In this document: in pieces, positions 1,381 to 64,000 of the stretch | How positions within the stretch are numbered: the stretch's first letter is position 1 | Layout of the letters: each line of letters opens with the position of its first letter | From: Octopus vulgaris | Taxonomy: Eukaryota | Assembly: GCA_951406725.2 (NCBI GenBank) | Contig: OX597817.1 | Location: 127,534,001-127,598,000, forward strand | DNA length: 64,000 bases | Direction: 5' to 3' | Program-made: the position numbers and the translations under genes | Notes under the pieces: model-generated | Seen by the model: only the letters and a program-made list of their open reading frames with translations | Databases searched by the model: none | Told to the model about the DNA's origin: nothing

Positions 1381-2009
1381 AGTCTATTGACATACTATAA
1401 ACTGCAGCCAAATTGCCCTCAAATCGCTGTAAAAAAAAGATAAAATAAAACTCTGGATAATGTAATCCTAGATACAATATATCTGATAAAGTTAGAAAAA
1501 ATAATCATGTTTGGAATTCTTTGATCATAGTTTTACTCAATCAGTGCTGACCTGTGGTTAAACAACAGCGATAACAATGTGTTTGAGCTACTAACACAGA
1601 AAAATATTGCAGATCAAATAACCGCGATGATCAAACCATGGTTCTAATTCTGGCATGCTAAGTGCTTTCACATAAATTCATTACATGGTTCACTATATTT
1701 CAGTGCTCATTAAAAGTCATGTGATATGAGCAATGTTTGTATGCCTGAAACTTCAGGAAATTGCACTTCAGCCATATAGCAGATGTAAGCAAGTATTTCA
1801 AATATCAGAGAGTTATGTGTGCACAAAACACGCTTTTCGTTCGTGATAGTATTTCAAATTGTTTGAACATGCTGCACAATAAATGCATTTTAAATACGCA
1901 ACTATTTGAATGGACAAATGAACTGATCAATCAGAGATCACAAGTGTAGATCGTAGCTGATAGTTATTTATTTAAGATGTTTTCAGGGAGAAACTTAAAT
2001 CGAACCGGA

Positions 2010-2450
2010 CAGTTTTTATGGTTCACATAAACTCAAGATTGTTTTAAAAATGTTAAATGGGGATTGCAATAGTTTTTAATGTCTCGTTTATAGCGACTTG
2101 AGATTGTTTAAAGATATTAAATATCAGCGCAAATGTTTGTGATATATGGCTCACAGTGAATGAAGGTTATTTAAAGATATCAAATGGTGCAGCAAATGTG
2201 TACAAAGTATGGCTCAGAGCAACTCCAGGTTATTTACAGATATTAAATCACCGGTAAAGAGGATTCTAAGTCTTGCTTCAAAGCATCTCAGCGTTATTTA
2301 ACGATATTAACTGACAGTCGTAAAAACCTATTATATATGGGTCAGAACAAATCAAACATGTTCAAAGCTTTAAAAGATGGGACGTTAAGGTGTCTAATGC
2401 TAGGAACACAGCAATTTAAGGCAGTTTAAATATACTAAATGACAGTCGCG
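2010..2450. repeat. Degenerate ~64-bp-period minisatellite, 7 units
   Basis: Core like GGTTATTTAAAGATATTAAAT recurs at about 2037, 2102, 2165, 2228, 2292, 2356 and 2420 (spacing 63-65 bp). Confidence 0.75.
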
Positions 2451-2693
2451 AATATTGGTGGTTTAGCAGAATTGATAGAATTACTTACAATATATCTTGT
2501 GATATTTAGTAACGGCCGTTTACGTTCGAAGCTCAGCTAACGCTGGAGTTAACACTGACTTCGAGTATTCTAAGTCAACGAAAAAAGGGGTGCCATTCAA
2601 ATATTAGGATCAACGTAATCAACTATACGCTTGCTCCAAAACATCTGCAACCTTGAACCTATTTTAGAAATGATTATTAATACGTTGAATCCG

Positions 2694-2753
<60 letters not shown>

Positions 2754-2755
<2 letters not shown>

Positions 2756-2958
2756 GGCAGCGAGCTGGCAGAATCGTTAGTACGCCGGGCGCAATGCTTA
2801 GAGGTATTTCGTCTACCGCTACGTTCTGAGTTCAAATTCCACCGAGGTCGACTTTGCCTTTCATCCTTTTTGGATCGATTAAATAAGTACCAGTTATACA
2901 CTGGGGTCGATGTAATTGACTTAATCCCTTCCCCCAAATTTGAGGCCTTGTGCTTATT

Positions 2959-2960
<2 letters not shown>
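2754..2960 (+). mobile_element. tRNA-derived SINE, family A (Nin/Deu-like central domain), embedded in (ATT)n
   Basis: A-box-like TGGCAGAATCG, B-box GAGTTCAAATTCC, central GACTTTGCCTTTCATCCTTT..GATTAAATAAGTACCAG; (ATT)n on both sides; many homologous copies in the window. Confidence 0.85.
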
Positions 2961-3023
<63 letters not shown>

Positions 3024-3024
3024 A

Positions 3025-3735
3025 GCAGAAGGGTAGAAAGCGGGCATAATCGTTAAAGTGTTGGACATGATAGCATGCAGCATTTCTTCCGGTTCTTTAT
3101 TTCCTTGTTTCAAATCACGCTACGGTCAACTTTGCCCTTCAGTTCGGGATCAGTGAAATAAAGTACCAGTTAAGTATTGGGTTCCATAGCATCGACTAAA
3201 ACCTCCAGTTAAAATTGCTCAGAACGTAAAGAGGAATGAAATATCGCAAATGTTTTGCCCGTGGCCCTAACAATTCTGCTAGCTCATTGCCTTAAAATTG
3301 CTGCATAATTAAACCCAAGGCCATTAATGTTTGCGAAAAGAGTTAGTCGATTGCTTCGACTACAGTCCTTGACTGGTACTTTATTTTATTGACCTTGACA
3401 CGATGAAAAGCAATGCCGACCTGGGTGGTATTTGAATTTAAATTGTCAATTGTCTGTACAAATGTTGAAAATCGTTTTGCCAATGCTATGAACTTCTACT
3501 AGCCTGCCACCTTAGTAATATTCCTTTCTACAAGGTCTGAAATTTTGCGAGAGGGGGATAGATGATTACAGTGACCACCCCAGCTTTCAATTGGTATTTA
3601 TATTATCGACCCCAAAAGGATTGGTATGACGAAGTAGACATCGGCGGAATTTGAACTCAAAACGTAAGGCTGATGCTGCTAAGTATGTTCTTTTTTCTCC
3701 GGCGTGCTAACGATTCTGACATTTCGCTGTCTTCG

Positions 3736-3779
<44 letters not shown>

Positions 3780-3900
3780 ACGCTAATAACAATAAAAAAC
3801 ATAATTTCTAAGGTAGGCACAAGGCTTCCGGACATGGGTGTGGAGAAGTCCAGCAAATCAAACCCAGCACTTGATTGGTGCTTATTTTATCGGCCTCGGT
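3025..3900. mobile_element. Cluster of decayed family A SINE copies in both orientations, with an (AGT)n tract
   Basis: Repeated GGTACTTATTTTATCGACCCC / GGCGGAATTTGAACTC motifs (minus copies) and a plus copy at about 3025-3215. Confidence 0.7.
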
Positions 3901-4660
3901 AAGATAAAAATGTACAGTCTTGTTCCTGCAATAACTCCTGTCTTTATTATTCACGGTTCGGCAAGTACATCAAGGGATCTTTTCATTTTAGTTCATTTCA
4001 ACAAAACGTTGTAGTAATTTTATATAACTATATCGATAATTACAGTATCATTGTCAATTTTTTTTTTCTCATGGCACATGATCAAAGCATATTATGTGCT
4101 ATTGGTGGTCTTTTGTCTACTAAAGTTCTATGGAATATTCACATTTTCTTTGACGAAATTATTGTCCATGTAAAGGCATGCTTTTACGTGGACAATAATT
4201 TTGCAATTGATGAACTAAGTACAGTCTCACTGTGTTCGTTTTTTAGCTATCGTTTCAGGCTTCAATCTTTTTCTTATCGAATCTCATGTACGCAATATTG
4301 TAACTGCAGATAAAAATCAATTTGCTTCGGAATTAACAAGATCACATGCCAGGTCTTTGTGTTAGATGGGAACGTAGTCTTGTCGGCAACATTAATAACT
4401 GCCAACTTGAACTTCTTCATAATACTAATTAGTATCCTAATACATTTTCTTCGACGGATAAACAGTCAAAAAGTATGTAACTTAGTACGAGGTGCATGGT
4501 GTTCATTTCCACCTACCCACAGATGTTTTCTAGAATTATTATCTATAGACTCTAGATCTTTGGTAATCCACTCCTATACTACAGACAAATACCATAGCTG
4601 GCATTGGGTTAATAGAACAGATCTATTTTCTTGACATTGAAATGATATATTTGCATTCCG

Positions 4661-5337
4661 TAAGGCGGCGAGTTGGCAGAATCATTAGCACGCCGGGGAA
4701 ACTGATTAGCGGCACATTGTCCTTGTTTACGTTCTGAGTTCGAAATTCCGCCGAGGGCAATTTTGCCTTCGATTTTTTCAGGGTCGATAAAATAAGTATC
4801 AGCTGAGCACCGGAATCGATGTTACTGTTTTACCCACTATCCTGAAATTGCTGGCTTGGTGCTAAAATTTGAAATCAATATTTTCAATGTGTCTGAATTC
4901 TCATGGCTTTTTGTTGTTTTTCATTCTCAATTTTTATTTCATATACGCCCCACTGTTTGCTCAGCTTTTGTATTACTTACCCTTCCTTGAATTCCAAATT
5001 GCTCTATTGTCACGTTCTTGAGTTTTTTCAGAACATCTTAATGTCTTTGATGAACTTCGTTGTGTGTGTGTGTGTGTGTGTTAGCATCAATATTATTGTT
5101 CTTGCTGTTGGAGCAATGGTTTCAAAGATTTGTGAACACGACCAGCAATTTCATGGCAAGGTGTAAGTCAGATACATCGATTCGATTGTTCAACTGGTAC
5201 TTATTTTATCGACCCCGAAAGGATGAAAAAAACAAATTCGACTTCGGCAGCATCTGAACTCAGAACGAAAAGCCGGAAGAGAAGCTGCTAAGTATTTTCC
5301 CGGCGTTACTAACGTTTCTGCCATTTCGCTGTCTTAG
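4661..5337. mobile_element. Two family A SINEs in inverted orientation (4661-4875 plus; about 5165-5337 minus)
   Basis: AAGGCGGCGAGTTGGCAGAATC head at 4662; reverse-complement head ending near 5337. Confidence 0.75.
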
Positions 5338-5440
5338 CAATAACGATGACAACAAAAACAAGAACAACAAGAACAAGCAGAAGACGAAGAAGAAGAAGAA
5401 GAAGAAGAAGAAGAAGAAGAAGAAGAAGAAGAAGAAGAAA

Positions 5441-7445
5441 AGGGATGCTGCTAGGGTTCATACAGCTGTAAAGATCAGCTAATGATCAATAAAGCCATAA
5501 CTGAAGACAGCCGCAGAAAGAAGAAGGGTCTAAGTATGACCTGGATCGATAACCGAGAGGCTTTTGATAATATTCTCCACACATGGATCTTAGAAACACT
5601 AGCCATGAACAAGGTAGCACCAATAATCATAGAATATATAAAACATTCCATGAATAAATGGCAGACAGTGCACGGCTCCAGACAAAAGAGTCACTTATAA
5701 AATCCAAAGCCATCCCCATTAGAAGAGGAATATTCCAAAGAGACACAATCTCTCTACTCCTTTTCTACTTGGCACTGACACCTTTGTCTTGAATGCTAAA
5801 CAGATATGGATACAACTGTTACGGCAAAACAATCAGCCAACTCTTATATATGGATGATCTAAAACTGTACGCTACAAATGATAAACAGCTGGAAACATTA
5901 CTACAGACAGTATATGGATTTACCAAAGAAATAAACATGAAATTTGGCTTAGAAAAATATGCCAAAGCAACCTTTGAAAGAGGAAAACCAAAGTAGCAAC
6001 ATCACACTAGATGAAGCAAATGAAATAACTGAATTAGATAAAGGCCAGACATACAAATGCTAAGGAATCAATGAACTAGATACGATACAACACACACAAA
6101 TGGAAGAAAATATAAGAAAAGAATACTATAGACGAGTTAGAAAACAGAGCTCAATGTGAAAAACAAAATAATAGGTATCAACACTCTAGCCGTCCCAGTT
6201 ATATGTTGCAGCTACAATATGCTTAACTGAACTCTAAATTAACTAATCAAAATAGACAGGAAAACAAGAAAAATAATGACAGGATTTAGGATGCCCCATC
6301 CAAAATCTGACATAGAAAGGTTATATTGAAAGTTTTATACAGCTCGGAAACTATTACAAAATAACCGTCATAAGACTACAGAAGTACCTTCTTACGAAGC
6401 AAGGAAGACTAATACAAATATCCACAGGACATGAATAAAACAGAAAACTGTTTTCACTTTTTAAGGAAGCTGACAAATACAAAAAAGGAGTCATAGTACC
6501 TAACAACAATGAAGAACAAGAAGAAACGAAAAAAGCTGTAAACAACTGAAATCTGGACTAAAACTGGAACAGCAACAGATCATAAAACAATGGCAAGAAA
6601 AGCCCCTTCATGGCAAATACTGAGTTAAACTAAACAGAATAGAAATAGACCATGCAAAATCCCACCAATGGCTGAGAGGCTCAGGACTCAAAACAGAGAC
6701 CGAGGGATATTTAATTGCAGCACAAGACCAAAGCCTCTCCACCAGAAATTACCAAAAGCATGTAATGAAAATAAATGCAACAAATAACTGCAGAATATGT
6801 AGAGATGGACAAGAAACAATATTGTATCTGGCTGCCTAGTCCTGGCTAAGAAGAAATATATTCTCAGACACGACAGAGTTGGGACCTACATTCACTGGAA
6901 GCTATGCCAACACTGTGGAATAACAAAAGAAAGAAGATGATATAGGCACACGCCACAAAAGGGTTACTGAAAATGAGAAAGTAACCATACTATGCCATAT
7001 ACCAATACACACAGACAGAGAAATTAAGGCCAGTAGGCCAGATATAATTGTCAGTAGTCATCAAGTAAAAGAATGCTTTCTAATCGCTGTATCAATAGCA
7101 ACAGTTGACAATGTTTCTCTAAAAGAAATGGAGAAGCTCTCAAAATACAAGGACCTGGAAATAGATGTAATTCGAATGTGGAGTCTAAAATCAGAAACAA
7201 TTCCTATCTTAGTAGACGCATGAGGTATGTTAAAAAATAATCAGACAAATACATAACAAAAAACCTGGACTGACAAGACTAAAATACAGAAAATAGCGCT
7301 ATTAGGCGCCGCACATATCCTACGTAAAACACTTTCAATACAGTAAAAAATAAGAGCATCACAACGAACCACAGCACATACCCAAGGCACACAGAGCTGT
7401 GCTCGTTAGTACAGTGAAAGCACGTGATAAAAAATAGACTACTGA
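5441..7445 (+). mobile_element. 5'-truncated, decayed R4/Dong-like non-LTR retrotransposon (RT plus restriction-like endonuclease)
   Basis: Frames with WIDNREAFDNILHTWI, GIFQRD, LLYMDDLKLY, IAAQDQSL, CRIC, RHD and RPDII motifs, interrupted by stops and frameshifts; starts after (GAA)n and ends in (AAT)n. Confidence 0.9.
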
Positions 7446-7454
7446 ATAATAATG

Positions 7455-7540
<86 letters not shown>

Positions 7541-7567
7541 TACTATTATTATTATTATTATTATTAT

Positions 7568-7602
<35 letters not shown>

Positions 7603-7603
7603 T

Positions 7604-7640
<37 letters not shown>

Positions 7641-7655
7641 GCTATTATTATTATC
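7445..7655. repeat. Compound trinucleotide microsatellite (AAT)n-(ATT)n-(AGT)n-(ACT)n-(ATT)n
   Basis: Read directly from sequence. Confidence 0.95.
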
Positions 7656-7869
7656 ATTTATTTATCAGTTATCTATTTATCTATTGCCCACATGAGCTAA
7701 ACATAGAGGGGACAAACAAGGACATACAAAGACATTAAGTCGATTACATCGACTCTAGTGCGCACCTGGTACTTATTTAATCGATCCCGAAAGGATGAAC
7801 GGTAAAGTCGACCTCGGCGGAATTTGAACTCAGAAGGTAACGGCAGACGAGATACCGCTAAGCGTAATA

Positions 7870-10218
7870 ATCCCCATGAATATGAGACGGGTAGATAGGA
7901 GTATGATAAATAAAGTAACACAAAAGAGAAATACTGTCATACCATACATCCTGATGGAGGGTACAACACAAACAAAGTATCTTCTCCGAGTCATTGCGCT
8001 GCTTGTTGAGGAAAATTACGACAAAAAATGGTGGAGCAAATGAACCATGGTGGAAATGACGCATTGAAAAGGACATAATGCGGATAAGGCAAGATTTAGA
8101 AAAATATAGTTAAGAGAAAACTAGAAAAATGAGAAAAAGACCGACCGAGAAAAATTAGAAAAGAAATATAAAATATGGAAGAACGGGTTTGATGCAGTAA
8201 CAGAGCAGTTAAAACAGAGGATCATGGCAAACAGTTCGAGGAGAACAGATTGCTAAAAAAGTAACTCGAAGCAATTCTTCCGAACGTCAGAAGGAGACAA
8301 TGGGGAAAATGTTGCTCGTGATGCAAATCAAGCCAAGGAGTTCTGGAGCGGATTATGGGGAAACAATATGGTGCATAAAAGGGATGCAATGTGGATAGGG
8401 ACTATCAAGACAGAATTACAAGGAGGAAAGAAACAAAGGAATGTTGTCATAAGCACGGGTGATGTGAAAGAACAAGTGGGTAAAATACCTTACTGGAAAG
8501 CGCCGGACCAGATGGGATTCATGGCTTCTGGCTGAAGAGATGCCACGCGGTGCATGAAAGACTAACAGCTCAATTAAATGAGTGTGTCCAGAAAGGTACA
8601 GCCCCCGCATGGATGGTGACTGGGAGGACAACACTTGTAATGAAAGATAGAAGAAAGGGGAATATTGATAGAAACTACCGTTCCATAGCATGTCTAAAAA
8701 TAATCTGGAAGATACTCACAGGAATATGTGCTGCAAAGACATACACTTTCTTGGCACAGGAAAAAATTCTACCAAGGGAACAAAAAGTATGTAGGAAGAG
8801 TTCTTAGAGTATCAAGGGTCACCTGGTCATCGATAAAAAAGTTTTGAGGCATTGTAAAAAGTGTAACAGGATTAGGTTCGGTAACACTGGAGGGGTATCC
8901 GATCTGATCGCTTCACATACAATTTAGGTAGAATAACAGAGACAAAGTCAGGCGGTCTATGATCACAGTAAATGGTGGTTTATTCTCGGTTACAAGCAAA
9001 AACTAGTGCACGTTTTCTCTAGTGGGAAACCGACAGCCGAATCCGCAGGACTGATTGCTATGCTATCTTGTTGCGAGTCAAACGATTTGTCCGGTTCGCT
9101 CCCGCTTCGTTGGTGTGAGGTTCTCAGAGTGGAAGTCAAGACACGTCCGACCGCGAACACCGCTTAAGCCAGAAAGGATGAGTTAGCGATCCGCGTTTCA
9201 GGTTTCAGTTCCTGCACATGCGCATGAAGGAAACTTCCGGTGGCCAACCGGAAGTAATCCAATTCTGCGCATGTGCGCTGAACCTTACACAGTAGCGTCA
9301 CTACAAAAGCATCATACAAACTTGTCTATGGCTTGGATTGACTTTAAGAAGACATATAATATGATACCTCATTCGTGGATCGTTGAATGCCTGCAGATGT
9401 TTAGTGTTGCTGACAACATTACACATTTTCTGATGCATAGAATGAAAGAGTGGAAAACCAAATTGTACGCAAGAAATGTATTCCTTGGAGAAGTTGATAT
9501 TAAAAGGGGAATCTTCCAAGGTGACTCGCTTGTTCCTTTACATTTAGTAATTTCACTAATGCCCATAACAATGACACTTAGGAAAGTTAACATAGGCTAC
9601 CGATGTGGGAAGAAAGGCCCATCATTGAACTATCTTCTGTTTATGGATGACCTGAAATTGTTTGGGAAATCTGAAAAACAGGGGAATCTTCCAAGGTGAC
9701 TCGCTTGTTCCTTGTAAGAACATAGGTATAGAACTTGGGTTTAACAAATGCACAGTACTTAACATGAAAAGATGGAAGAAAGCAGGCTGCAGAAGATTGC
9801 GGTTACGATCAGAAGAGACAATGGGTGAACCCGACGGTAGGAGGTATAGATATTTAGGGATTTTGGAGGTGGATGACATTCTCCACAGAGAAATGAAAGT
9901 CAAGGTCAGTGAGGCGTATCAAAAAAAGGGTGCAGATAGTGTTGAGATGCAACCTAAATGCCAAACATTTGATTACCGCAATGAACATCTGGGCAGTGGC
10001 GGTGGTCATATATAGTGTGTCCATCCTCAAATGGATTAAGGAAGAAATATCAACACTGGATAAAAGGACGTGAAAGTTGATGACGCTGTATGGGCTGCTA
10101 CATACTAAAGCAAACGTAAACAGACTGTATATGAAAAGAATGGTGACAGAGGGCTAATTAGTATAGACCACTGTATAAAGAGTGGAAGGAGAACGCTTGC
10201 CGAGTATTTTATAAATAG
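7870..10218 (+). mobile_element. Decayed R4/Dong-like LINE RT region, interrupted by a solo LTR
   Basis: WKAPD, NYRSIACL, LSMAWIDFKKTYNMIPHSWI, GIFQGDSL, LLFMDDLKLF and YRYLGILE motifs in broken frames; ends at the (GATA)n tract. Confidence 0.9.
8862..9305 (-). mobile_element. Solo LTR (444 bp), probably Gypsy-type
   Basis: TGTA...TACA termini; 4-bp target-site duplication AAAG (8858-8861 and 9306-9309); splits the LINE codons for HCKK|HHTN; AATAAA on the minus strand at about 8979-8984. Confidence 0.85.
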
Positions 10219-10219
10219 T

Positions 10220-10303
<84 letters not shown>
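10219..10303. repeat. (GATA)n microsatellite
   Basis: Read directly from sequence. Confidence 0.95.
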
Positions 10304-10304
<1 letters not shown>

Positions 10305-11137
10305 GCTCACATATGTTAATATGTGAGCGTCTGTGAAATAGAAGTATGCTGAGTGTACTTTATACGAAAGGCAAAAGGAATTATAGCAAAATAAGAACAC
10401 GAAATAGCAAATATTTTACACAATGGAAACGTGTCTGACAACATACTCACGCGCAAACAGACACACACCTTTGTGTATATATGTTCACATACACATTCAT
10501 CCACACACATGCATATGAATATAAATGCATACGTTTATATGTATATATGTATGTATATCATATCACTGAAATCGCGTATTCGTGTTGATTGTTTCATGTT
10601 TTTATTGATAAAATAGTGAAAATAGTGATTTATGTTGAGACATGAAAATAAAAGCGTAAAACTAGACAATATGCTAGATTTCCGTCACCATAACATTTGG
10701 CATTGCTTACCATAAACAACGAATTCAATCGTGTGTAGCCATATTTGGGTTTGGAATGATTTTCTGCTAGATTACAACCGAATGCTACACATCAACTAAA
10801 ATGTTATATTTGAAGGTTAAAACGAAAGTAAAATGATATATAAATCAAGGTATAAACAAATATTACACAAACATACGCGCACAGGCACACAAAAGAGCGC
10901 ACATATACACAAGACAGCCACACACTCGCGCGTACGCACGCACTAACGCGCGCGTGCGCGCACACACATGCACACACACACATACACACACAAAGAGAAC
11001 AATCCTGCTAAAAAGAAAATGTAAAAGTCGATAAATAAAACGAAAATCAAAAGCATCTGTGATCTTATTTCAGGGAACTTTTCTGCTTAAATTTTGGAGT
11101 TCTTCTGAAGAATGATTTTCTTTAAGATTTTAATAAT

Positions 11138-11194
<57 letters not shown>

Positions 11195-11195
<1 letters not shown>

Positions 11196-11567
11196 TTCCA
11201 AATTCTGCAACAAAGGCAGCCATTTTGAGGGGGAGAGGATGTGTCGATTACATAGACCTTAGTGCTCAACTGGTACTTAATTTATCGACACTGAAAGGAT
11301 GAAAGAAAAAGTAGGCCTCGGCGGAATTTGAACTCCGGGCGTAATTATAATAATGATATCAAATTTTTACCGGAAGGGCCGCTTGGAGGAGGAGATTAAG
11401 TCGATTACATCCACCTCTGTATTCAACTGCTATTTATTTTATCGACCCCCGAAAGGATAAAAGTTAAATTCGACCTCGGTGGAATCTGAACTGAGAATGC
11501 AGTGACGTGCGAAATACCGCTAAGCATTTCGTCCAAGTCGCTAACAATTTTGCCAGCTCTTCGCCTT
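11195..11567 (-). mobile_element. Two tandem family A SINE copies between (AAT)n tracts
   Basis: Reverse-complement Nin-like domain and B-box seen twice. Confidence 0.75.
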
Positions 11568-11663
11568 AATAATAATAATACGAATATTAATGCTACTACT
11601 ACTACTACTACTACTACTAATAATAATAATAATAATAATAGTAATAATAATAATAATAATAAT

Positions 11664-11713
<50 letters not shown>

Positions 11714-11715
<2 letters not shown>

Positions 11716-12237
11716 GGCTTCTGATCTTAACTGATTGGAAGTGTTATCATGTACATTGTTTTGTCTTGGTATAAAAGATGGGCTACAGCAAATATTCTGC
11801 TCAATACCACAGATTTGCTTGTCAGTTGTTTGACCTTAACCAGTTGAGCATGTCCCTTAGTGGCTGACGATATGCGCATCTCTGATCACGAGCAGAAGTA
11901 GTGGGGGAGCATCATAGCCATGTGTTGAGAGGGATTCTTTGGGGTTTGAATAATTCACTTCTGGAAACATGGGTGGTTTTTTCAACATCCTTAAACAACC
12001 CTTATTCAGGGACTGTTTGAGCGGGATGGGCTACTCAACCTGAAGAAAATTCTAACTGGGCCCCACCTGTAAGGTCATGTGCTGTTTATCTTGATATGAG
12101 ATCACCATGTCGCGCACATGTGGTTGTGATGCATGTGCCTGGTGTACCCTTATCAGACGGGTAGTCATGATGGGTATACTGGGCTTCGTATATTTTACGC
12201 CAGTGTCACTTTGATGGCATGCTCTGCTCGCTCACTC

Positions 12238-12240
<3 letters not shown>
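11714..12240 (+). mobile_element. Non-coding interspersed element bounded by (AAT)n, probably the 3' region of an (AAT)n-targeting LINE or a derivative
   Basis: Higher-GC, non-coding block inserted between two (AAT)n tracts, ending CACTC-(AAT)n. Confidence 0.45.
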
Positions 12241-12280
<40 letters not shown>

Positions 12281-12282
<2 letters not shown>

Positions 12283-13536
12283 CAATAACAATGAAGATTG
12301 CTACAATTGGCCTAGACACCTACCTGAAAAACTCTGAGGACTGGATGCTAAAACTTGTCTCAAAACATGAAAACAAGAAAGCATCATACTCAGTCACAAA
12401 ACAGGCAAAGGAATATCTAAGTGAATTCCGAATACAACCAATTTCGGAGATAGATATACAAGAAACAAGCACAGAAAAAGCTAGGCGCATGAAAACCCGT
12501 GCCAAAACTGCGGCCTTAGATATTCTGAATAATAAATGGCAAAAAAAACCTCTCTATGGCAAATACCCAAAGAGAGCGAATAATGCAGATATCGACAAAG
12601 CCCTGACCCATCAATGGCTAATGGCCTCTGGCTTAAAATCTGAAACAGAGGGGTTTATCATAGCAGCTCAAGATCAATGCCTACCAACAAGAAACTACCA
12701 GGCCAACATATTAAAGATCAGAAGCAGTCCAACGTGTCGTGTATGCAAGCAACAAAATGAAACCATTGACCATGTGGTCTCCAAGTGCAGTCTTCTAGCG
12801 CCTACAGAGTATCTCAACAGGCACGATAGAGCTGCACAATATATTCACTGGGTAATCTGTAAAAACCTGGATTTGCCCCATGAAAAAAACTGGTGGGAAC
12901 ACAAACCACCCCCAGTGCTTGAAAATGACCACATCTCACTCCTCTGGAACTTCACCATTCAAACTGACAGGAAGATAGATGCAAATAGGCCAGACATCAT
13001 ATTGAAAAACTTCAAACAAAGAACATGCCTCCTCATTGATATGACTGTCCCAATCGATATAAACGTATCTGTCAAGACCTACCAAAAACTGAGCAAATAT
13101 AAAGATCTTGAAATAGAAATCAGCAAAATGTGGAAGCTGAAGACTAAAACAATACCTGTTGTCATAGGTGCCCTGGGAATGATAGCAAAAGGGGCTGATA
13201 GCTACCTAACTCAGATACCAGGAAACCCAAAAATGGCAGAAGTTCAAAAGATAGTGCTCATGGGAACTGCTCATATCCTACGCAAAATACTCTCTATGTA
13301 ATCTCAAGGTTTAAAACAAACATAATTTTCGGTTTAAAAAAAAAAAAAAAAAAAAAAAAACCTTTTTTTTTTTTTTTTTTTTTTTTTAGACATTCATTAG
13401 TACAACATCCCCACCCCCCAAATATATGGCACACTAGGCATAACAACAACATGAACTTCCAACCCTGTTGTCTCTTGAGGTCTCTGGGTGAGACTTGGAG
13501 CCAACTTGTACAAATATAAAGCAAAAGTCAAACATA

Positions 13537-13540
<4 letters not shown>
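12281..13540 (+). mobile_element. Young 5'-truncated R4/Dong-like LINE; intact 336-aa C-terminal ORF (12291-13301) with CCHC knuckle and restriction-like endonuclease
   Basis: CRVCKQQNETIDHVVSKC, RHD, RPDIILK..LIDMTVP..KLSKYKDL; no stops in the ORF; flanked by (AAT)n on both sides. Confidence 0.92.
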
Positions 13541-13570
<30 letters not shown>

Positions 13571-14592
13571 CTCGATCGCACTATCCGACAGACAATGACA
13601 ATGCATGGTGCCCAGAACCCTAAGGCGAATGTACACAAGCTCTTCATGAAGTAGTGTAAATGTGGACGTCGGCTGATTAGCGTACAGAAGTGCATCAACA
13701 GTGAAAGAAAAAACATGGTAAAATATTTGGTAAACAGCAACCAGGACCTGTTACAGTATGCTGCTAATGCTGGAGGATTTATCAAAAATGTATTTGATAG
13801 TGCTCATGAATTCCGATCATGAACAGCCAACGAGAGAGAAGAAACCCTACTCCGCGTGGAATTACATGGTCGGTTCCACCGCGAAACTAACAAATTAAAA
13901 GACCAGAAAGTATCATGGAAGTGCCTCAGCAAGAGTAACCTAAAAACGAATATTGAAATCCCAATCATCGCTGCTCAGGATCAGGCATTGGATACCAACT
14001 CAGTGAAAAGAGATATATACCACACAAGCGCAACGAACCTCCGCAGAATGTGTGGGAAGAGGGTCGAAAACGTAACTCACATTTTTAGTGCTTGTGGAAG
14101 TCTTGAGCAGAAAGAGTATAAGCGCAGACACGACAAAGTAGCCCAAAACTTTCACTGGCTACTATGCCAGAAGTGTGGATACCAGGTAACGGGTGCTTGG
14201 TACTAATATAGAAAAGGCAATGGACGGAAAGAGAAAGGCAAAAATACCCTGGGACTTTGGTTTCCAGACAGACAAGATGTTAGATCACCGAAGGCCGGAT
14301 ATAGTAACCGTTAGGAGGGACAAACAAGAGTGCCTTATAATCGACGTGGCAGTGCCAGGAGATAAAATTATTATCATGAAGGAAAGAGAAAATACTGAAA
14401 AATATGGAGGCCTGAGAAATGAGATCGCTAAGATGTGGCAGCAACGAGAGTCAAACATAAAGTTTGTCCCTATTGTCACCGAAGCATTGGGTTCAATACC
14501 AGCCAGCCAGAAGACACATCTGGAGACTTTAGAAATACGTACAATTTAGGGTGTAGTGCAAAAGTCGGCATTACTGGGAACTACTCACATAT
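13571..14592 (+). mobile_element. Decayed R4/Dong-like LINE 3' fragment
   Basis: IIAAQDQAL, RMCGKRVENVTHIFSAC, KRRHDKVA, RRPDIV..LIIDVAVPGD motifs with frameshifts. Confidence 0.88.
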
Positions 14593-15703
14593 GGTGGCAG
14601 AAACGTTAGCACGTCGGGCGAAATGCTTAGCGGTATTCATCCTTTCGGGGTCGATAAATTAAGTACCGGTTACGCACTGGAGGTCGATGTAATCGACAAT
14701 ACCTATATCTGTCCTTGTTTGTCCCCTCTGTGTTTAGCCCCTTGTGGGTAATAAAGAAATAGGTATTAAGTATTTTCTGTCTGAGGGCCTTGGTATAATT
14801 TGACTGACTGTACAAACCCCTAGTACAACAATATCTTCAATCAACAACAGCACGATATTGGATACTGTGCGACGTCTTAAATAATAATAACAACAACAAC
14901 TCAGAACGTTTTATGTTGACAAACAGTAAAGAAAATAACGTCAAGAATTTTTTTTGCGTCACCTTAACAGATACTCCAACTCGTCATTTTAGTTAATATC
15001 AATGATTATAATACTTTTTTGTTAGCCACGGGGGCCGCCCAAAAAATATTTAGGAAGATACAAAGACGAAATGGTCAGTGGTTATTTACATATGCATATG
15101 AACACAATGAAAGAGAAACAATTAATTAAAATAAAATAAAAACGTAAGTTCCTAATGGGGAAAGTATCATCCTGGTGTGACCAAGGAGCCCCATCCTAAG
15201 GCGAAATAAGATGTTTTGTCGGACTAACGGTTATGGATTACATAGTTATTCTATAGCCTCTTTGTACTATAGCCTCTTTGTACTAGTCAGTGCTTGCAAT
15301 ATTATCTACTCTCACTCGTTGAGCAGTCACCAAACTTTAATTGACAATGACATCTCAGTTAAACTTCTCTACGACTCTAACAAGTCCTATCCCTCCTAAA
15401 ATGGTTTGCATCAAGTGCCTGGTGCAGGAAAAGAAAAACTCAATTTCATACGATGTTTTACATTGGAGGGTTTTATTTATTCAGTGACAAACTATTCGAA
15501 GAGTTTCTGACCAATCTGTTATAGGTGAAATAAAATATGTTTTATCATCGGACTAATGATTATGAATTAACATATATATATATATATATATAATCCCCCC
15601 AAAACAGAAACCAAAGAAAAGATGCAACAAGAAAAAAAACAACAACGCGTGGACGTGATACATGCAAAGTATTAGCAAACGCCCAGGGAAGAAAAGAAAG
15701 GTA

Positions 15704-15738
15704 GTTTTACGTTTCGAGCAAAGCTCTTCTTGAGAAAC
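15704..15738 (-). ncRNA. Degenerate minimal hammerhead ribozyme motif (Penelope-type)
   Basis: Minus strand GTTT-CTCAAGA-A-GAGC-TTT-GCTC-GAAAC-GTA-AAAC: stems I and II pair and stem III is the palindrome ACGT; core has CUCA instead of CUGA. Confidence 0.55.
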
Positions 15739-16169
15739 AGGAGACAGAGAAAAGTCCAAGAGAAAAGGAAGATGGCGAGAAAAAAATCGCCAACGATCCA
15801 CATGTATTTCATTTTGAAATGACCGGAAAGGAATGGGTGGAGAAAAAGTTCCTTCTAAGAGTGGAGAGTGCAAGAGAAGGAGGTATCGGTGTGTATGTGT
15901 GGCTATGGGCGTGCGCGCAAATGTGTGTGTAATAGCGTGATACCATGTGTGTGTATGTGTGGTGTTTGCGTGTTATTGACTGTTTATATGTGTAAGTGAA
16001 CTTTGTGCCTGTTAAGGATCACATAAAGCTTTTTAAAAGGATAAGGAAAAGGAGCAAAATTACTTCGAAGATTCAGGTTTTTGGCCACCCTCGGTGTAAT
16101 GACGGCAATGAAGACGAAACTCTGAAATCAATGTCGAAACATCTCCTTGTTGAAATGACATGTATATCC

Positions 16170-16234
16170 ACACATACATATGTGAGTGAGTGTGGGTGCG
16201 TGTATACATGTAAGTATTTATAAACTTTCATAGT

Positions 16235-16283
<49 letters not shown>

Positions 16284-16625: not shown

Positions 16626-17222
16626 TAAATTTTGTAAATAAATGATTTCATAGGCAAAAAAATGTGTCACGCTTAAGTTCTGTGAATAACAAATGATATT
16701 TCCTGATAAACACACATCGTTTTGATATATAAATATCGTCTTTGAAAGATTGTTTATGTGCTGATGTATAAAATAAATATGAATAATACACACACACAAA
16801 CACACAGACAGACATATTTCTATACATACATTGAAAAAGTAACATGTTTTCATATATACATGCATATACACAAACATACATTTCAACACACATACAATTA
16901 TATATTTATATTGACAAACTCAAGCATCAACTTTTCTACTTTCAGAATCTAATATATCTTTTTCTCTGGCTTTATGTGTATATATGTATGAGTATTTAGA
17001 TATTTATATATACTTATATGCATATATTTGTGTGTGCGTGTGTGTGTATGTGTGTGTATAAGTGTGTACATTTTCGTTTTTTGTTTTTTGCTTTTCCCAG
17101 TGCCCCATTTACTCGACTGCCGTTTAAGAATTTAAGAAAGAATGCAAACTATGTTCACAGAAAATATAACTTGTATAATTTTAGAAACATAAAATATTTC
17201 TATACCGTTAACAATAGCTTAT

Positions 17223-17601
17223 ACTAGCAGTACAGCCCGGCGTTGCTCGGGTTTGTTTCCACCCTTTAGAATTGGAATTTTTGAAAAGTAAAACTTTTGC
17301 ATTATGTAGCTTGTTATTCTCTTTAAAGGAACATTTTTCTGATTGAAATACACCGAAAAATGGCGACACAGCAGTCGAAAAGTTGTAAAAAATAGGGATT
17401 TTCATAGAAAAAAAAAACCTTTTTGATGTAAATATTTTTTGGTGTTAACATGGTCCGATTTGAATTGTTTTCCTACGAAATGAAGACCAAGCCTTCTATC
17501 ATACTCTCAATTTTGGTCAACTTGCACCGCAGGGTCTCGGAGGAGATAGTGTTAGTTGAAGGCTACCAAACCTGCCACACACACAGAGACAACTTCAGCT
17601 T

Positions 17602-17610
<9 letters not shown>
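17223..17610 (+). mobile_element. Non-autonomous Helitron/Helentron-type element
   Basis: Begins ACTAGCAGTACAGCCCGGCGTTGCTCGGGT (sub-terminal hairpin) and ends (CA/GA)-CAGCTTTATATA; homologous inverted copy at 63745-64000. Confidence 0.6.
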
Positions 17611-17633
<23 letters not shown>

Positions 17634-17772
17634 ACCACTTTCATTCCTGTATCAACTTGTGAGTAAATGCATTATTCTAACCGTTATTCCAATCATAAAA
17701 TATTAGGTTGAGGAAAAAGTTCGTGCGCAGCGTTAAAATAATGCTACTACTGACAAGCTTTAATTCCAAGCG

Positions 17773-17944
17773 ATAAGGAAATAGGAGAGTTCAATATTAG
17801 AAGTGATTCTGGAAGAGGGAGATATAGGAAGTATAAAGAGAAATATAAGTATAAAATTATTCTATACTCATATTTCCCTTTATACTTCCTATATCTCCCC
17901 CTTTCCAAAATAACATCTTATATTGAACTCTATTATTTCCTTAT
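17773..17944. repeat. Imperfect ~85-bp-arm palindrome (inverted terminal segment of a Penelope-like element)
   Basis: GGGGAGATATAGGAAGTATAAAG versus CTTTATACTTCCTATATCTCCCC and further matches; centre near 17858; directly precedes a hammerhead motif. Confidence 0.85.
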
Positions 17945-17959
17945 ATCGTCTCTCATATC

Positions 17960-18007
17960 GTCTCTGATGATGGGATATATCTTATATCCCTGAAACAGCT
18001 GTAAGAC
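17960..18007 (+). ncRNA. Minimal type I hammerhead ribozyme (Penelope-type)
   Basis: GTCT-CTGATGA-T-GGGATATA-TCT-TATATCCC-T-GAAAC-AGCT-GTA-AGAC: intact core, stem I GTCT/AGAC, 8-bp stem II, palindromic loop III, GUA cleavage triplet. Confidence 0.82.
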
Positions 18008-18178
18008 TACTTTTCTCTTTATAAATGTCCTAGAAATCTCACACTGCCTTGGCTTTCTTGTCACATTTTATTTAACATGCACACGCTCACGCACGACCCT
18101 CATTAGACTACTTACTCATACTGTTATCGAACCTTCCATAGCACTTACCTGCGTTTTGAGTCTTCTAGATACCAAAAC

Positions 18179-18242
<64 letters not shown>

Positions 18243-18449
18243 GGCGAATACTCGTTATAAATATCACCACCAGTGGCCTAGCATGTATAAAAAGTCAAAA
18301 GACAACATATTCGTATTTCAAAATAGAAAATTACCCTTTAATAGGTAATTTTGCATGCTAGAAATAGCAGCCAACACGGCCAAAAAACCACAATTTTATA
18401 GCAAATTTCGAAGTAAATGAAAAATAAAAGCCTTTACCTTGTTATATAA

Positions 18450-18561
18450 CGGTTATACCATGGTTTCGGATCACTTTAGCAGAATAATATCGTTTGCTAT
18501 CTTTTAATAGATAATTTAGCAAGACCATATTATCTCCCACGCGAATCCTCGTCAGTAACCG
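18450..18561 (-). ncRNA. Minimal type I hammerhead ribozyme with extended stem II
   Basis: Minus strand CGGTTA-CTGACGA-GGAT-(73 nt, partly self-complementary)-ATCC-GAAAC-CATG-GTA-TAACCG: full core, 6-bp stem I, palindromic loop III. Confidence 0.85.
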
Positions 18562-18729
18562 GCCTAAACAACTAGTTTATAACTCAGAGACAAGATAACA
18601 CGTGTCCCATCATTATATGCTATAATTTTTCAAATATCGCGCGCAGGCGTATTTACAGTCAGCAATAGATACAATGCCGAGCTGAAACTTCGAGAATGCT
18701 AAGAACATATTCATATATATATATATATA

Positions 18730-19190
18730 TATATGAATAAATAAATGAATGGAGTTGAACGAAGATGTTAACAAAATTCCTTTACTCTCGACGTTTCGAA
18801 GACAATAGACTTTACCCCGAAAGTGCTGCCAAAATTTGAAGCTAATAATCCCTGCTTCTAGTCACAAGGTCAATCATTTTACAGGGAGGGATCTAGTTGA
18901 TTACATCGACACCAGTACTTGGTTTATACTTGTTTTTTTCGACATCGAAAGGATGAAAGGCAAGAATTGACCTCGGCGGATTATCGTTTTGCTTACCATG
19001 TAGGCAGTCATCGCAATTTTTGTTTGTCTTGTTGTTGAGAGAGGCTCCCTTTCTTTCCTGATGAGAAGATTGCATCTTGCACCGTTTATTCCTTTGGAAT
19101 GAAACCATGTTGTCTTCGATACATATGTCGAGAGTAAAGGAATTTTGTTAACATCTTCGTTCAACTCCATTCATTTATTTATTCATATAT
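18730..19190. mobile_element. Penelope-like non-autonomous element with ~75-bp inverted repeats (18730-18803 and 19111-19190) and an internal SINE fragment
   Basis: ATGAATGGAGTTGAACGAAGATGTTAACAAAATTCCTTTACTCTCGAC has an exact reverse complement at about 19127-19174; adjacent to (TA)n; contains a hammerhead motif. Confidence 0.7.
19053..19134 (+). ncRNA. Hammerhead ribozyme motif with one core substitution
   Basis: CTTTC-CTGATGA-GAAGA-(43 nt)-TCTTC-GATAC-ATAT-GTC-GAGAG; the inverted partial copy at 18785-18803 keeps canonical GAAAC-GTC. Confidence 0.72.
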
Positions 19191-19332
19191 AACACACAAA
19201 TTTCTGCACATGAACCCGGAGTTTCTAGCCTTGGACAGGTCGCTTCAACCGTGTTTCTGACGAGAATTTGCTGCCCTGGTATCGGTTCATCGAATTTTCC
19301 ATGTTGACGGTAAACATAGGATAATTCATTCA

Positions 19333-19419
<87 letters not shown>

Positions 19420-20559: not shown

Positions 20560-21410
20560 AAACGAACTTTCGCTGCTTAGCCTCGGGTGAGACCTGATTG
20601 TGAAGTTCAAATCTCGCTCAAACTGAGTTTGCTTTTCATTATTCATCAATGCAAAGAAAAAAAGACGTTCTAGTAAGAACTAGTTGAGACTGATGGAAAT
20701 TACTAACCATTCCCCAAAAGGTATGGCATATGCTCGAGAGAATTATGATAAATTTTGTCTGAATTTCTAAGGTGAAGAATCGTCATTGTTATCACGTCAG
20801 ACAAAATGCTTAGCGGTATTTTTCTTCGCTATACGCTGAGTTCAAATTCCGCCGAGGTCGATTCTTGCCTTTCATCCTTTCGATGTCGAGAAAACAAGAA
20901 TAAGCCAACTACTGGTGTTGATGTAATCAATAAGATCCCTCCCTCTAAAATGATTGACCTTGTAATCAGAAGCAGGGATTATTAGCTTCAAATTTTGGCA
21001 GCACTTTCAGGGTAAACTCTATTACACCGACCCCAATGCTTTATTGGTACTTATTTCATCGACCTGGAAATAATGAATGGTAAATCGATCTCCGCAGAAT
21101 CTGAAATCAGAACGTAAAGACGAACGAATTGCCGCTAAGTATCTTAACCGGGTGTGCCAACAATTCTGCCAGCTCGGCGCCTTAATCTAGAAAGGATTAT
21201 TATAAGACAGGATTATTGTGAGCTGACAGAATTGTGAGAGCGTCGGAAAACTGCATTGTGGTATTGCCTCAAGCTCTTTACTTTCCGAATTCGAATCCCG
21301 TCGAGGTCAACTTTGCTTTCAATATTCCCAGGGTCGATATAATAAAGTGTCAGTCAATTACTAGGTCGGTGCTGTCGACTGGCCACATTTCACGAATTTG
21401 CTGGTCTTGT
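20560..21410. mobile_element. Cluster of family A SINE copies in alternating orientation
   Basis: Repeated GAGTTCAAATTCCGCCGAGGTCGA / GCCTTTCATCC motifs on both strands. Confidence 0.7.
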
Positions 21411-50417: not shown

Positions 50418-53160
50418 ATTCATCATCATCATCATTTAGCGTCCGTTTTCCATGCTAGCATGGGTTGGACGGTTCAACTGGGGTCTGGGGGAGCCCGAAG
50501 GCTGCACCAGGCCAGTCAGATCTGGCAGTGTTTCTACAGCTGGATGCCCTTCCTAACGCCAACCACTCCGAGAGTGTAGTGGGTGATTTTATGTGCCACC
50601 GACACAGGTGCCAGACGAGGCTGGCGAACGGCCACGCTCGGGTGGTGTTTTTTATGTGCCACCGACACAGGTGCCAGACGAGGCTGGCAGACGGCCACGC
50701 TCGGATGGTGTTTTTATGTGCCACCGACACAGGTGCCAGATGAGGCTGGCGAACGGCCACGATCGGATGGTGTTTGTTACGTGACCACAGCACGGAGGCC
50801 AGTCGATGCGGTACTGGCTACGGCCACGTTCGGATGGTTTTCTTGTGTGGCACTGGTACCACAAAGATACAAATTCCATTGATGTTCATCTGTTTTGATT
50901 TGATTTGATTTGATTTTCACTTGCCTCAACAGGTCTTCACAAGTGTCACAAGAAGGAAGGAAGGTATGCACGGCCACGCTCGGATGGTGTTTTTTTTATG
51001 TACCACCGACACAGGTGCCAGACAGCCACGCTCGGATGGTGTTTTTTTATGTGCTACCGACACAGGTGCCAGATGAGGCTGGCGAACGGCCACGATCGGA
51101 TGGTGCTTGTTACGTGCCCACAGCACGGAGGCCAGTCGATGCGGTACTGGCTACGGCCACGTTCGGATGGTTTTCTTGTGTGCCACCGGCACTGGTACCA
51201 CGAAGATACAAATTCCATTGATGTTCATCTATTTTGATTTGTTTTGAGGTACAAGGGCTTATCTTTGGCTAGGTATTTCTCCTGCAGCTGTCTTACCAGG
51301 AATATAGCATCAGTAGTACTTTTCCCTGGCACGAACCCAAACTGCATATCATCTAAGCTAACTCTCTCTCTAATTAATTGGGCTATAACCCTCTCCGTAA
51401 CCTTCATTACCTGATCCAGCAGCTTGATGCCCCTGTAGTTATTTGTATCTAGGGCGTCACCTTTACCTTTGTAGCAGTTGACTATTATGCTGCTACACCA
51501 GTCATTGGGTATGACTCCTTCGTGTATCACCTGGTTAACTATACGGGTGACTAAGCTATAGCCGACACTACCAGATATTTTGAGCATCTCTGCAGTAATT
51601 CCTGATGGGCCTGGGGCTTTCCCTGTTTTCATGCTTCTAATTGCCTTATCTACTAAGGAACTGTTAACTTGGATTGCTGGTCCCTCTGTTGGGTTGACAT
51701 TCGGCAGACTCTCTTTATCCCATTCATTTTCCTCATTCAGCAACCTTTCATAGTGGCGTCTCCAAGCCTCTCTCTTTGCATCCTCATTTAGCGCAAGTGA
51801 ACCGTCATCCTTGCGAACACATTTCTCTCCTACCACGTCACGATTCTCTCTCACACACCGTCTTGCAACACGAAATACCTCAAGTCTTTCATCCTCACGG
51901 CGCAGGACATTGGCAAATTTTTCCTTATCTGCCTCCCCTCTGGCTAGATAGACCTGTCTCCTAGCTTCCCTTCTGGCAGTCTGATACACTTCCCTGCTAC
52001 CACCGTTCTTCCAGGCTTTCCAAGCCTGTTTCTTTTGTCTTATAGCCCTGTCAACAATACTGTTCCACCACCACGTTATTTTGGGTCTTAAGGGGACTTT
52101 GCACCAGCCACAGATCTGGTTAGTGGCTTTCAGCAGGTTGTCCCTCAGAAGCGTCCAGTTGTCTTCTACCCCATGCGTAGCTATACCCCCTTCCATTTCA
52201 TCAAAGGCTTCAAGTAACATGTCTCTAAATCTCTGTCCATTCGCAGGGTCTTTAAGCATCCAAACCCTTCTTCTCCATGTTGGTCGTCTTCTAGTCGCCC
52301 TCTTAGTCCTGATCCTAAAGTCACTAACTACCAGTCTATGTTGTGGGGTGCATTCTTCGCCTGGGAAGGTTTTGGCATTTATAAGCAGCCATCTTTCCCT
52401 TTTTCTGGCAAGGATGTAGTCGATTTGGCTAGTATACCGGCCTGATCGGTAGGTGACCAGGTGGCTTGTCGGTTTCCTGAAGTTAGTGTTGCAAACCATA
52501 AGACTATTCGCATCGCAGAACTCCAGCAGCCTGGTTCCCTCCTCGTTGCGGGAACCATAACCGTAGCCGCCATGGAAGCCCCCCAGCACATCGTCCAACA
52601 TGCCCATTGAAGTCACCAGCCACAAAGAGAAGGTCCCTGTCGCTCGTCAATGATGTGGCATGCAGTAGGGTGTCATAGAAACAGTCTTTCTGTCCATCAG
52701 GTTGCCCTGGCTGAGGGGCATAGGCCGATATAATAGTTGCTAAACTATGATGGAGCACTAATCTAATCTTAATTATTCTGTCACATACTCTAACTACCTC
52801 AATTACCTTATCTACCCATTTTTCGGCGATAAGCATGCCCACACCCCCGACCCCGTCAGTATTCCCAGCCCAGAAAATCTTGTACCTCTGTCCTTTACCT
52901 GTGAGGAACCTAGCAGAACCTCCTCTCCACCTCACTTCTTGAATGCAGCATATATCAACCCACCTCCGTTCAAGCAATTCAACGATCTCGCCAGATCTGC
53001 CTTTCAGGGTGCCAACCATGTGGGTGGGGGTGGTATTGGCCCTAGTAGCGTCATGGACCTGAAAAGAAAACTCGCGTTTGGCAGGATTCATAGACAAACA
53101 ATAGAACTTAAGTTCAAACCGCGTACACAATACTAAACATATCTTGCAATGAATGACCAC
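50418..53160 (-). mobile_element. RTE-clade LINE, internally deleted: APE endonuclease and N-terminal RT fused to a repeat-rich 3' UTR
   Basis: CCIQEVRW, SAYAPQ, VAGDFNGHVG (frameshift near 52590), SQIDYIL, GKAPGPSGI, NYRGIKLL, QFGFVPGKSTTDAIF; ORF stops before the YADD motif; (GAT)n tail at about 50418-50435. Confidence 0.93.
50588..51240 (-). repeat. GC-rich ~63-bp tandem units, arranged as two duplicated blocks, in the RTE 3' UTR
   Basis: Unit GTGCCACCGACACAGGTGCCAGACGAGGCTGGCGAACGGCCACGCTCGGATGGTGTTTTTAT is repeated; block 50715-50900 recurs at about 51050-51240. Confidence 0.9.
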
Positions 53161-53308
53161 TACCTTTTATGGAAGGAGGTGGAGGTGGCGTACTACTTTT
53201 TATGGTAGGGGGTGAGGGTGGCGTAAGACTTTGAAGTGTACAAGGGAGACAAGGATGAGAAAATTTAGGACTTCCTGTACCGGTGGTGGGGGTGGGAGGG
53301 CGGGTGCA

Positions 53309-63745: not shown

Positions 63746-64000
63746 TATATATACAAAGCTGAGGTTATCTGTGTGTGGCAGGTTTGGTAGCCTTCAACTA
63801 ACATTATCTTCTCCGAGACCCTGCGGCGCAAGTTGACCAAAATTGAAAGTATGATAGAAGGCTTGTTCTTCATTCACGAGAAGATAAAATTCAAATCGGA
63901 CCATGTTAACACCAAAAATTATTTACATCAAAATGGTGCTTTTTTTCTATGAAAATCCCTAAATTTTACGATTTTTTTACTTATGTGTCGCCATTTTTCG
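63745..64000 (-). mobile_element. Non-autonomous Helitron/Helentron-type element, truncated by the window end
   Basis: Reverse complement of 17355-17610 (GGCTACCAAACCTGCCACAC, CGCAGGGTCTCGGAG, TGTTAACATGGTCCGATTTGAATT). Confidence 0.65.

Follow-up and report, generated by a model that had tools for sequence, protein, structure and literature searches.

Insertions of Penelope-like elements (PLEs) are, in the published text on these elements, strongly 5′-truncated, often accompanied by an inverted 5′-truncated copy, and bear a tail of 30-40 bp at one end only; those of the Neptune, Hydra and Naiad types are biased towards (TA)n (PMC8557442). PLE hammerhead ribozymes have a palindromic helix III and fall into many unrelated families per genome with varied palindromes; most are single motifs, sometimes lying 100-700 bp apart on opposite strands (PMC4209133), and they cleave weakly as dimers (PMC4209133, PMC6765202). 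[quoted passage not shown] Retrozymes, a second class of hammerhead-bearing repeat, are described as tandem repeats of 150-450 bp that are expressed as circles (PMC7229834). In cephalopods, PLEs make up 6.83% of the Octopus vulgaris assembly in 190 families (PMC13282606), and Penelope is abundant in coleoids too (PMC8967140). Here, we analysed a 64,000-nt stretch of O. vulgaris DNA (contig OX597817.1, positions 127,534,001 to 127,598,000; hereafter the window), in which three consecutive units with hammerhead motifs lie among (TA)n tracts between positions 17634 and 19334 of the window.

The locus is likely a (TA)n landing pad that holds the non-coding 3′ ends (pseudo-long terminal repeat (pseudo-LTR) with hammerhead, and tail) of three unrelated PLE-system families, each inserted singly. 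The closest described counterparts are the 3′ pseudo-LTR ends of PLEs with a C-terminal endonuclease (EN+) such as Neptune, Hydra and Penelope/Poseidon (PMC4209133, PMC8557442, PMC11167929). As far as they are described in these sources, those ends share with the locus a type I hammerhead with a palindromic helix III, 5′ truncation, an inverted 5′-cut copy, a tail that appears optional, insertion into AT-rich or (TA)n sequence, more than one unrelated family per genome and the occurrence of mostly single motifs. Every outer border at the locus is (TA)n. A tract at 17602-17633 forms the left border of unit 1 (17634-18183, plus strand), (TA)27 at 18184-18238 separates it from unit 2 (18239-18713, minus strand), (TA)11 at 18713-18734 overlaps the 3′ end of an inverted arm of unit 3, and (TA)35 at 19335-19404 closes the locus on the right. 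The (TA)n insertion bias of PLEs is seen at this locus; for other loci, single contigs bear on it, among them one of run X3 in which a family 2 copy ends on TA at 18315. An earlier note made from the sequence of this DNA had described the units as delimited by (TA)n, unrelated in sequence and non-coding, and all three descriptions hold: in the best of six pairwise tests between the units, 10 of 200 shuffles reached the observed score, and no remnant of an open reading frame (ORF) was evident by eye in the six frames of the units.

To locate hammerheads, we ran a descriptor scan for type I motifs over the window, with shuffles that permute two-letter blocks inside 500-nt blocks. The strict scan gave two matches, at 17960-18007 (plus) and 18450-18561 (minus), both with intact cores, and matches with a palindromic helix III occurred in 0 of 100 shuffles. 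A relaxed scan, which allowed one core mismatch and asked for a helix III palindrome of at least 6 nt and a helix I of at least 4 bp, gave three matches in the window compared to none in 40 shuffles. The third match, at 19053-19134 (plus), has GATA where the core has GAAA. The helix III loops of hammerheads 1, 2 and 3 are AGCT, CATG and ATAT, and both these loops and the three positions are exactly those given in the earlier note. All three matches with a 6-nt palindrome cluster inside 1.2 kb of the 64 kb scanned. In each unit, a type I hammerhead with a very short palindromic helix III lies near the 3′ end, as in EN+ PLEs, at a distance of 176 nt in unit 1, 211 nt in unit 2 and 57 or 200 nt in unit 3. 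The three hammerhead motifs are real and beyond chance. A looser rule adds an AT-rich match at 57132, which is probably a chance hit. Further motifs had been reported elsewhere in the window: the one with an ACGT loop is present as a minimal motif at 15704-15738 (minus), though with one core mismatch, and the one with GCGC is absent from the window scans (six two-mismatch matches compared to 2.3 expected, none intact). None of the three units has a second hammerhead-bearing copy elsewhere in the window. An ORF beginning in the hammerhead core, in the style of the anole Poseidon, was not seen; in units 1 and 3 the reading frames run into a stop codon before 14 codons have passed, and this part of unit 2 lacks an ATG. 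Exact-pattern scans for the unit 1 motif in metagenome contigs and for the family 3 motif in viral contigs returned no loci, as expected of an animal repeat.

To examine copies of the units, we used contigs from public sequencing runs. Part of the region is contained in 20 of the 24 listed runs, which come from 10 studies and carry 5 organism labels. Contigs of four runs (X1, X3, X7 and X14) were aligned to 18229-19344, and hence to units 2 and 3, at 80% likeness (4271, 4066, 1782 and 474 pieces, respectively); X1 may represent the source sample. Such contigs give neither RNA ends nor strand nor level, and summed depth is not copy number; the 24 listed runs include none that is recorded as RNA and contains the region, and X14 is only guessed to be RNA, so that its coverage of hammerheads 2 and 3 is uninformative on expression. 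Units 2 and 3 are multicopy repeats. The 15 joints considered, of 20, comprise eight between opposite strands (four per family), two head-to-tail joints, both of family 2, and five skips.

Unit 3 had been taken for one mini-element and is in fact composed of three pieces. The first is an inverted 5′-cut copy of family 3 (18728-18805, minus) that mirrors 19110-19191 and is identical to it over 63 nt; these 78 nt contain only the 3′ half of the hammerhead, with GAAA kept, and lack the tail. The second is a captured 177-nt segment (18804-18980, plus) derived from a short interspersed nuclear element (SINE), which we take to be an octopus SINE. It is an inverted duplicate of 20848-21023 (minus), part of a SINE copy 1.9 kb distant and its likely donor, from which it differs by 14 substitutions and one gap (91.5% identity; other SINE copies in the window reach 71-75% over shorter stretches). 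Its joints show microhomologies of 2 nt and 1 nt, and its left part is low-copy, with a depth of 200-300, consistent with local duplication. The third piece (18980-19334, plus) is a direct copy of the high-copy family 3, with 73 nt upstream, hammerhead 3, the body to 19191 and the optional tail. Twelve X7 contigs continue upstream of 18980 with common sequence, showing that this direct copy is 5′-cut. Together with the eight opposite-strand joints, the arrangement of 18728-18805 and 19110-19191 reproduces the inverted 5′-truncated copy beside a direct copy that is known from EN+ PLEs. The right arm stops at 19191, with 143 nt of the element still to follow, and is therefore not the inverted terminal segment it had been read as; inverted arms of this type should not be taken for terminal inverted repeats. 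The inverted arm also lacks exactly the 4-nt helix III loop (18791-18794), which yields the minimal ACGT form, a deletion that is not among the listed common indels. An X1 contig identical to the locus over 18830-19009 has a depth of 50, compared to 84 for the contig matching the donor. The captured piece is present in X7 with one difference, and the unit 3 insertion thus seems, from the contigs, to be common to the organism labelled D.

Hammerhead 3 (19053-19134) has a helix I of 5 bp that can be extended past a bulge, a helix II of 6 bp with an inner hairpin, and a helix III of 2 bp with the ATAT loop; cleavage is predicted after 19129 (GUC). Core position 19120 is A in 99.9-100% of the depth in all four runs, and the locus copy carries a private core change there. 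The family 3 core is intact, and, because this change is absent from the rest of the family, hammerhead 3 at this locus is probably inactive as judged from its core. At 19101, a U.G pair becomes U-A in 47-69% of the depth. The 3′ tail (19192-19334, plus) starts AC-rich and ends in a hairpin, and it belongs to family 3, since contigs bridge the short inner TA at 19187-19192 and join it to the body. It appears to be optional at one end: the inverted arm lacks it, and depth past 19190, the end point of that arm, falls 3.3-, 3.4- and 6.0-fold in X3, X7 and X14, as two start sites of the reverse transcriptase (RT) would give (PMC11167929). Summed depth in X1 is 220,000-350,000 over 18989-19254, compared to 50 for the contig identical to the locus, suggesting thousands of family 3 copies as a rough order of magnitude only. 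A fourth hammerhead within 19192-19334 was considered and rejected, as its core-like word (19263) is changed in 98-100% of the depth.

Unit 2 is a copy of family 2 that ends in a 13-bp hairpin. Hammerhead 2 (18450-18561, minus), with its intact core, has a helix I of 6 bp, a structured helix II of 81 nt and a helix III of 2 bp with the CATG loop, and cleavage is predicted between 18456 and 18455 (GUA). Depth over the part of family 2 on the 3′ side of the hammerhead (about 18239-18445) exceeds that over the hammerhead-bearing part 9- to 19-fold, and the drop across the bins flanking the predicted cut is 19-, 18-, 17- and 9-fold in the four runs. Point depths in X1 (48,400 at 18430 compared to 1,200 at 18469), together with two joints, suggest that the drop lies near 18445. 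Summed over X1, the depth is 24,000-117,000 for the tail and 1,800-8,000 for the hammerhead part; read as a rough order only, summed depth not being copy number, this points to hundreds to thousands of tails and tens to about a hundred hammerhead parts. Variation among copies shows one pair of helix II, 10.2-11.2, changing on both sides from G-C to A-U (18547 C>T in 70-95% and 18469 G>A in 47-76% of the depth). From the depth and distance columns, both changes appear to stand together on X14 record 11, whereas record 10 has neither. At 18472, U.G becomes U-A in 97-100% of the depth. The copies thus show one compensatory pair in family 2 and a conserved core base in family 3, whereas a change at 18473 would break a predicted pair. 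Taken together, these variants are suggestive of selection on the ribozymes. A hairpin inside helix II (18498-18521) recurs in the tail (18332-18355) at 83% identity with a compensatory change, and X3 and X7 contigs skip between the two hairpins (18355>18527, 18529). The wider alignment around them is not significant (109 of 2000 shuffles), and the hairpin is possibly a repeated protein-binding site.

Unit 1 consists of 139 nt of unplaced origin, a 172-nt fold-back, hammerhead 1 and a 3′ tail of 176 nt. Hammerhead 1 (17960-18007) has a helix I of 4 bp, a helix II of 8 bp and a helix III of 2 bp with the AGCT loop; it is imperfect in having a U-U mismatch at the base of helix II, and cleavage is predicted after 18003 (GUA). 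The fold-back is a near-perfect inverted repeat at 17773-17944 (75 of 86 columns Watson-Crick) just upstream of the hammerhead. It is internal; the inverted terminal segments that the earlier note had reported for two of the units were confirmed in none. Its mismatches on the hammerhead strand are five A.C, one G.U and four transversions, and these types make a DNA fold-back that arose during insertion more likely than an RNA hairpin under selection. A reading of the left part of this unit as a diverged inverted tail found no support, as 136, 373 and 814 of 2000 shuffles did equally well. In each of the three units, the 3′ terminus is a predicted hairpin with a short C-rich end after it (18124-18183, 18239-18298 and 19275-19334), and the 3′ ends of units 2 and 3 are alike, ACC(C).

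On published PLE work, from which enzyme, priming and cleavage are all taken, the array probably arose by independent PLE-driven insertions into a TA tract. [quoted passage not shown] Early stops of synthesis would leave 5′-cut copies, often with a short inverted second copy made from the other DNA end; in unit 3, the nearby 177 nt would have been copied into the gap at microhomologies. The TA remaining on either side would be the target for the next family. The hammerheads of the source transcripts probably cut as homodimers via the helix III palindrome, or weakly as monomers. On the best reading, the array has no joint function at this locus. The anatomy (an inverted 5′-cut copy, an apparently optional tail and a palindromic helix III) and the multicopy nature of units 2 and 3 bear out the PLE link and the (TA)n targeting put forward in the earlier note; the idea of non-autonomous mini-elements with fixed ends is not borne out, as family 3 extends upstream in the 12 X7 contigs. 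We file the units as remnants of the PLE system rather than as autonomous PLEs. Whether they are truncated autonomous PLEs or short non-autonomous families is nearly evenly balanced, with a slight lean to the former.

Several observations weigh against this PLE explanation. EN+ PLEs have a single ORF for a telomerase-like RT and a GIY-YIG endonuclease. None of the three units has RT or GIY-YIG sequence attached, and GIY-YIG found no match in the 17 ORFs of the window that were scanned (46 are listed), so that the PLE driver is something we infer. The family 3 tail is 143 nt long compared to the published 30-40, and X1 shows no depth drop at it (0.9-fold). Also unlike the EN+ PLE ends, as described in the sources cited for them above, are the long helices II of two motifs (53 and 81 nt) and the local DNA captured between inverted copies. 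The inverted arms of unit 3 are identical over 63 nt, whereas 14 of 176 sites (8%) separate the captured piece from its donor, a contrast that has a P of about 0.005-0.016 if both are equally old; a one-event story therefore needs gene conversion or another donor. Each joint is backed by one or two contigs per run at 80% likeness, where repeats create false joints. The contig alignment covered units 2 and 3, leaving unit 1 out of the copy data. In family 2, 18473 A>T (45-100%) would break a G.U pair predicted for helix II; five joints and 78 variant rows fall outside the set considered here, and the variants do not amount to a full covariation test. An Rfam search with a cut-off of E 1 returned 71 matches, most of them to microRNA models over TA repeats or the unit 1 fold-back, and no hammerhead was among them, so the identification rests on the descriptor and on the variation among copies.

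A possible, if tentative, alternative that is compatible with the PLE explanation is that family 2, if no other, is a genuine non-LTR retrozyme, in which a monomer of about 380-400 nt is cut by its hammerhead from tandem RNA, circularised and reinserted by a PLE, the cut RNA being the usual template. Head-to-tail joints with a common breakpoint were found in four contigs from X1 and X7 (18635>18255 in one X1 and two X7 contigs, and 18634>18232 in one X1 contig), giving a period of 381-403 nt, and mussel retrozymes measure 350-390 bp (PMC7229834). The depth step lies within about 10-25 nt of the predicted cut in all four runs, and in folding, unit 2 surpasses every one of 100 shuffles (z -3.6). 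A 2-bp helix III with a tetraloop is the form described for invertebrate retrozymes (PMC7229834), and a preprint derives animal retrozymes from PLE pseudo-LTRs (bioRxiv 10.64898/2026.07.22.740005). As treated in these two sources, animal retrozymes are likewise non-coding, a few hundred nt long, of type I and of proposed PLE dependence; the locus differs in holding monomers of three families rather than the tandem of one and in its inverted structures. Tandem repeats of 150-450 bp with a hammerhead in each unit are absent from the locus, as is a partial tandem forming direct pseudo-LTRs, the four family 2 contigs being the one hint. A repeat of about 400 nt inside unit 2, with 18639-18712 as a second 3′ end, was not supported (495 of 2000 and 86 of 500 shuffles as good), and family 2 runs on 5′ of 18635. 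Family 3 gives no tandem joint among the 15, and the fold of unit 3 is no better than its shuffles (z -0.3). Stalling of the RT at structure could also produce the depth step, as could a sister family that has the tail alone in common, and the contig data give no sites where many molecules start or stop. Cleavage is not required for insertion in the one PLE studied in vitro (PMC11167929), and the inverted structures at the locus lean the other way.

A broader proposal is that octopus harbours several abundant undescribed hammerhead families using PLE enzymes, that the cut RNA of family 2 is the normal insertion template, so that copies accumulate from just 3′ of the cut onwards, and forms tandem or circular monomers of about 400 nt, and that incompatible palindromes make the ribozymes orthogonal and dimer-gated. 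We regard it as doubtful in this full form. If true, the self-cut template and the orthogonal palindromes would be genomic evidence on the in vivo role of PLE hammerheads. Computed helix III energies are -11.1, -11.2 and -7.0 kcal/mol for the homodimers, compared to -1.2, -1.6 and -1.2 kcal/mol for the mixed pairs and +2.4 to +2.9 for the monomer hairpins. By base pairing, the three motifs are thus predicted not to activate each other, so no hammerhead at the locus has a dimer partner. The thermodynamics agree with the dimerisation keys suggested in the earlier note, although such orthogonality is true of any two different palindromes and says nothing of selection for it. It is very improbable that the array functions or is mobilised as one unit, or that its palindromes are selected keys blocking cross-activation of coexisting families, despite these energies and the clustering of all three palindromic matches. 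The units lie one to two orders of magnitude apart in depth, and depth collapses at their borders, which argues that they do not travel together; their orientations differ, one core is broken, and the TA-rich stretch also houses a presumably Helitron-like element and another PLE-like end. The perfect 63-nt inverted repeat of unit 3, the TA flanks and the lack of coding sequence could suggest MITE-like DNA transposons with terminal inverted repeats, TA targets and passenger or chance hammerheads, but this extremely improbable reading is largely refuted already, since no unit has inverted repeats at both termini (unit 1 has none there, unit 2 offers nothing better than 19 nt at 79%, and the right arm of unit 3 stops inside the element and includes half of a hammerhead), shuffled sequence yields no such hammerheads and family 3 conserves its core base.

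The PLE explanation leaves the locus mostly ordinary and well accounted for by known biology, with family 2 as the one lead. Octopus Naiad PLEs (Naiad_Ovul, Naiad_Obim and Naiad_Omin) come from the same host group and prefer (TA)n, but, as described in PMC8557442, they have an N-terminal endonuclease and lack canonical hammerheads, whereas the units carry canonical motifs. By eye, the Naiad 3′ ends in the part of the PMC8557442 supplement consulted bear no resemblance to the units, and nine short unit motifs had no exact match in its text, where line breaks may hide some. In that supplement, the 3′ ends of Naiad_Ovul and Naiad_Obim contain two hammerhead core halves in reversed order, marked HHR_half_core for Naiad_Ovul; judged by their order, these might be a permuted hammerhead. 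The text of PMC7229834 makes no mention of cephalopods, and the supplement text of PMC13282606 none of hammerheads or ribozymes. The O. vulgaris repeats catalogued in the latter comprise 190 PLE and 1102 unknown families, and the units may be among them. We found no description of octopus hammerhead families, or of palindromes as family keys, in searches of the open-licence literature. Lunse et al. reportedly studied PLE hammerhead dimers and may already treat palindrome diversity. The three families do not seem to have been described, though they possibly lie within the O. vulgaris repeat library. They extend a known class with examples from cephalopods, and the presence in one genome of several families that differ in their palindromes permits a direct assay of homodimers against heterodimers. 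In vitro, PLE insertion proceeds without cleavage (PMC11167929). If the ends of family 2 copies truly cluster at the predicted cut, a histogram from an existing octopus assembly would be a cheap test of whether cleavage is used in vivo.

The window is AT-rich animal DNA with many microsatellites, SINE copies and remnants of long interspersed nuclear elements (LINEs). To the left of the array, a TA-adjacent PLE-like 3′ end at 15593-15940 (minus) contains the minimal ACGT hammerhead, indicating that the landing pad reaches beyond the three units. A non-coding stretch at 16070-16237 (plus) ends at (TA)17 and holds, by eye, a possible and very degenerate minimal hammerhead at about 16095-16145, which the scans missed. 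An element at 17220-17601, which we take to be Helitron- or MITE-like, adjoins the (TA)n at 17602, and a second copy, 87% identical and also ending on TA, lies at 63739-64000. Broken LINE remnants occupy 8484-14549 and 51225-53166 (RVT_1 at 9187-9696, zf-RVT at 12282-13298, and RVT_1 with Exo_endo_phos at 51228-53166). Among the 120 relatives listed for the LINE ORF at 12282-13298, identity is highest for one from Octopus bimaculoides (77%, covering 58% of the query) and 61% or less for the rest. Beside the second remnant, at 50582-51192, lies a GC-rich tandem repeat with a period of 62-63 nt.

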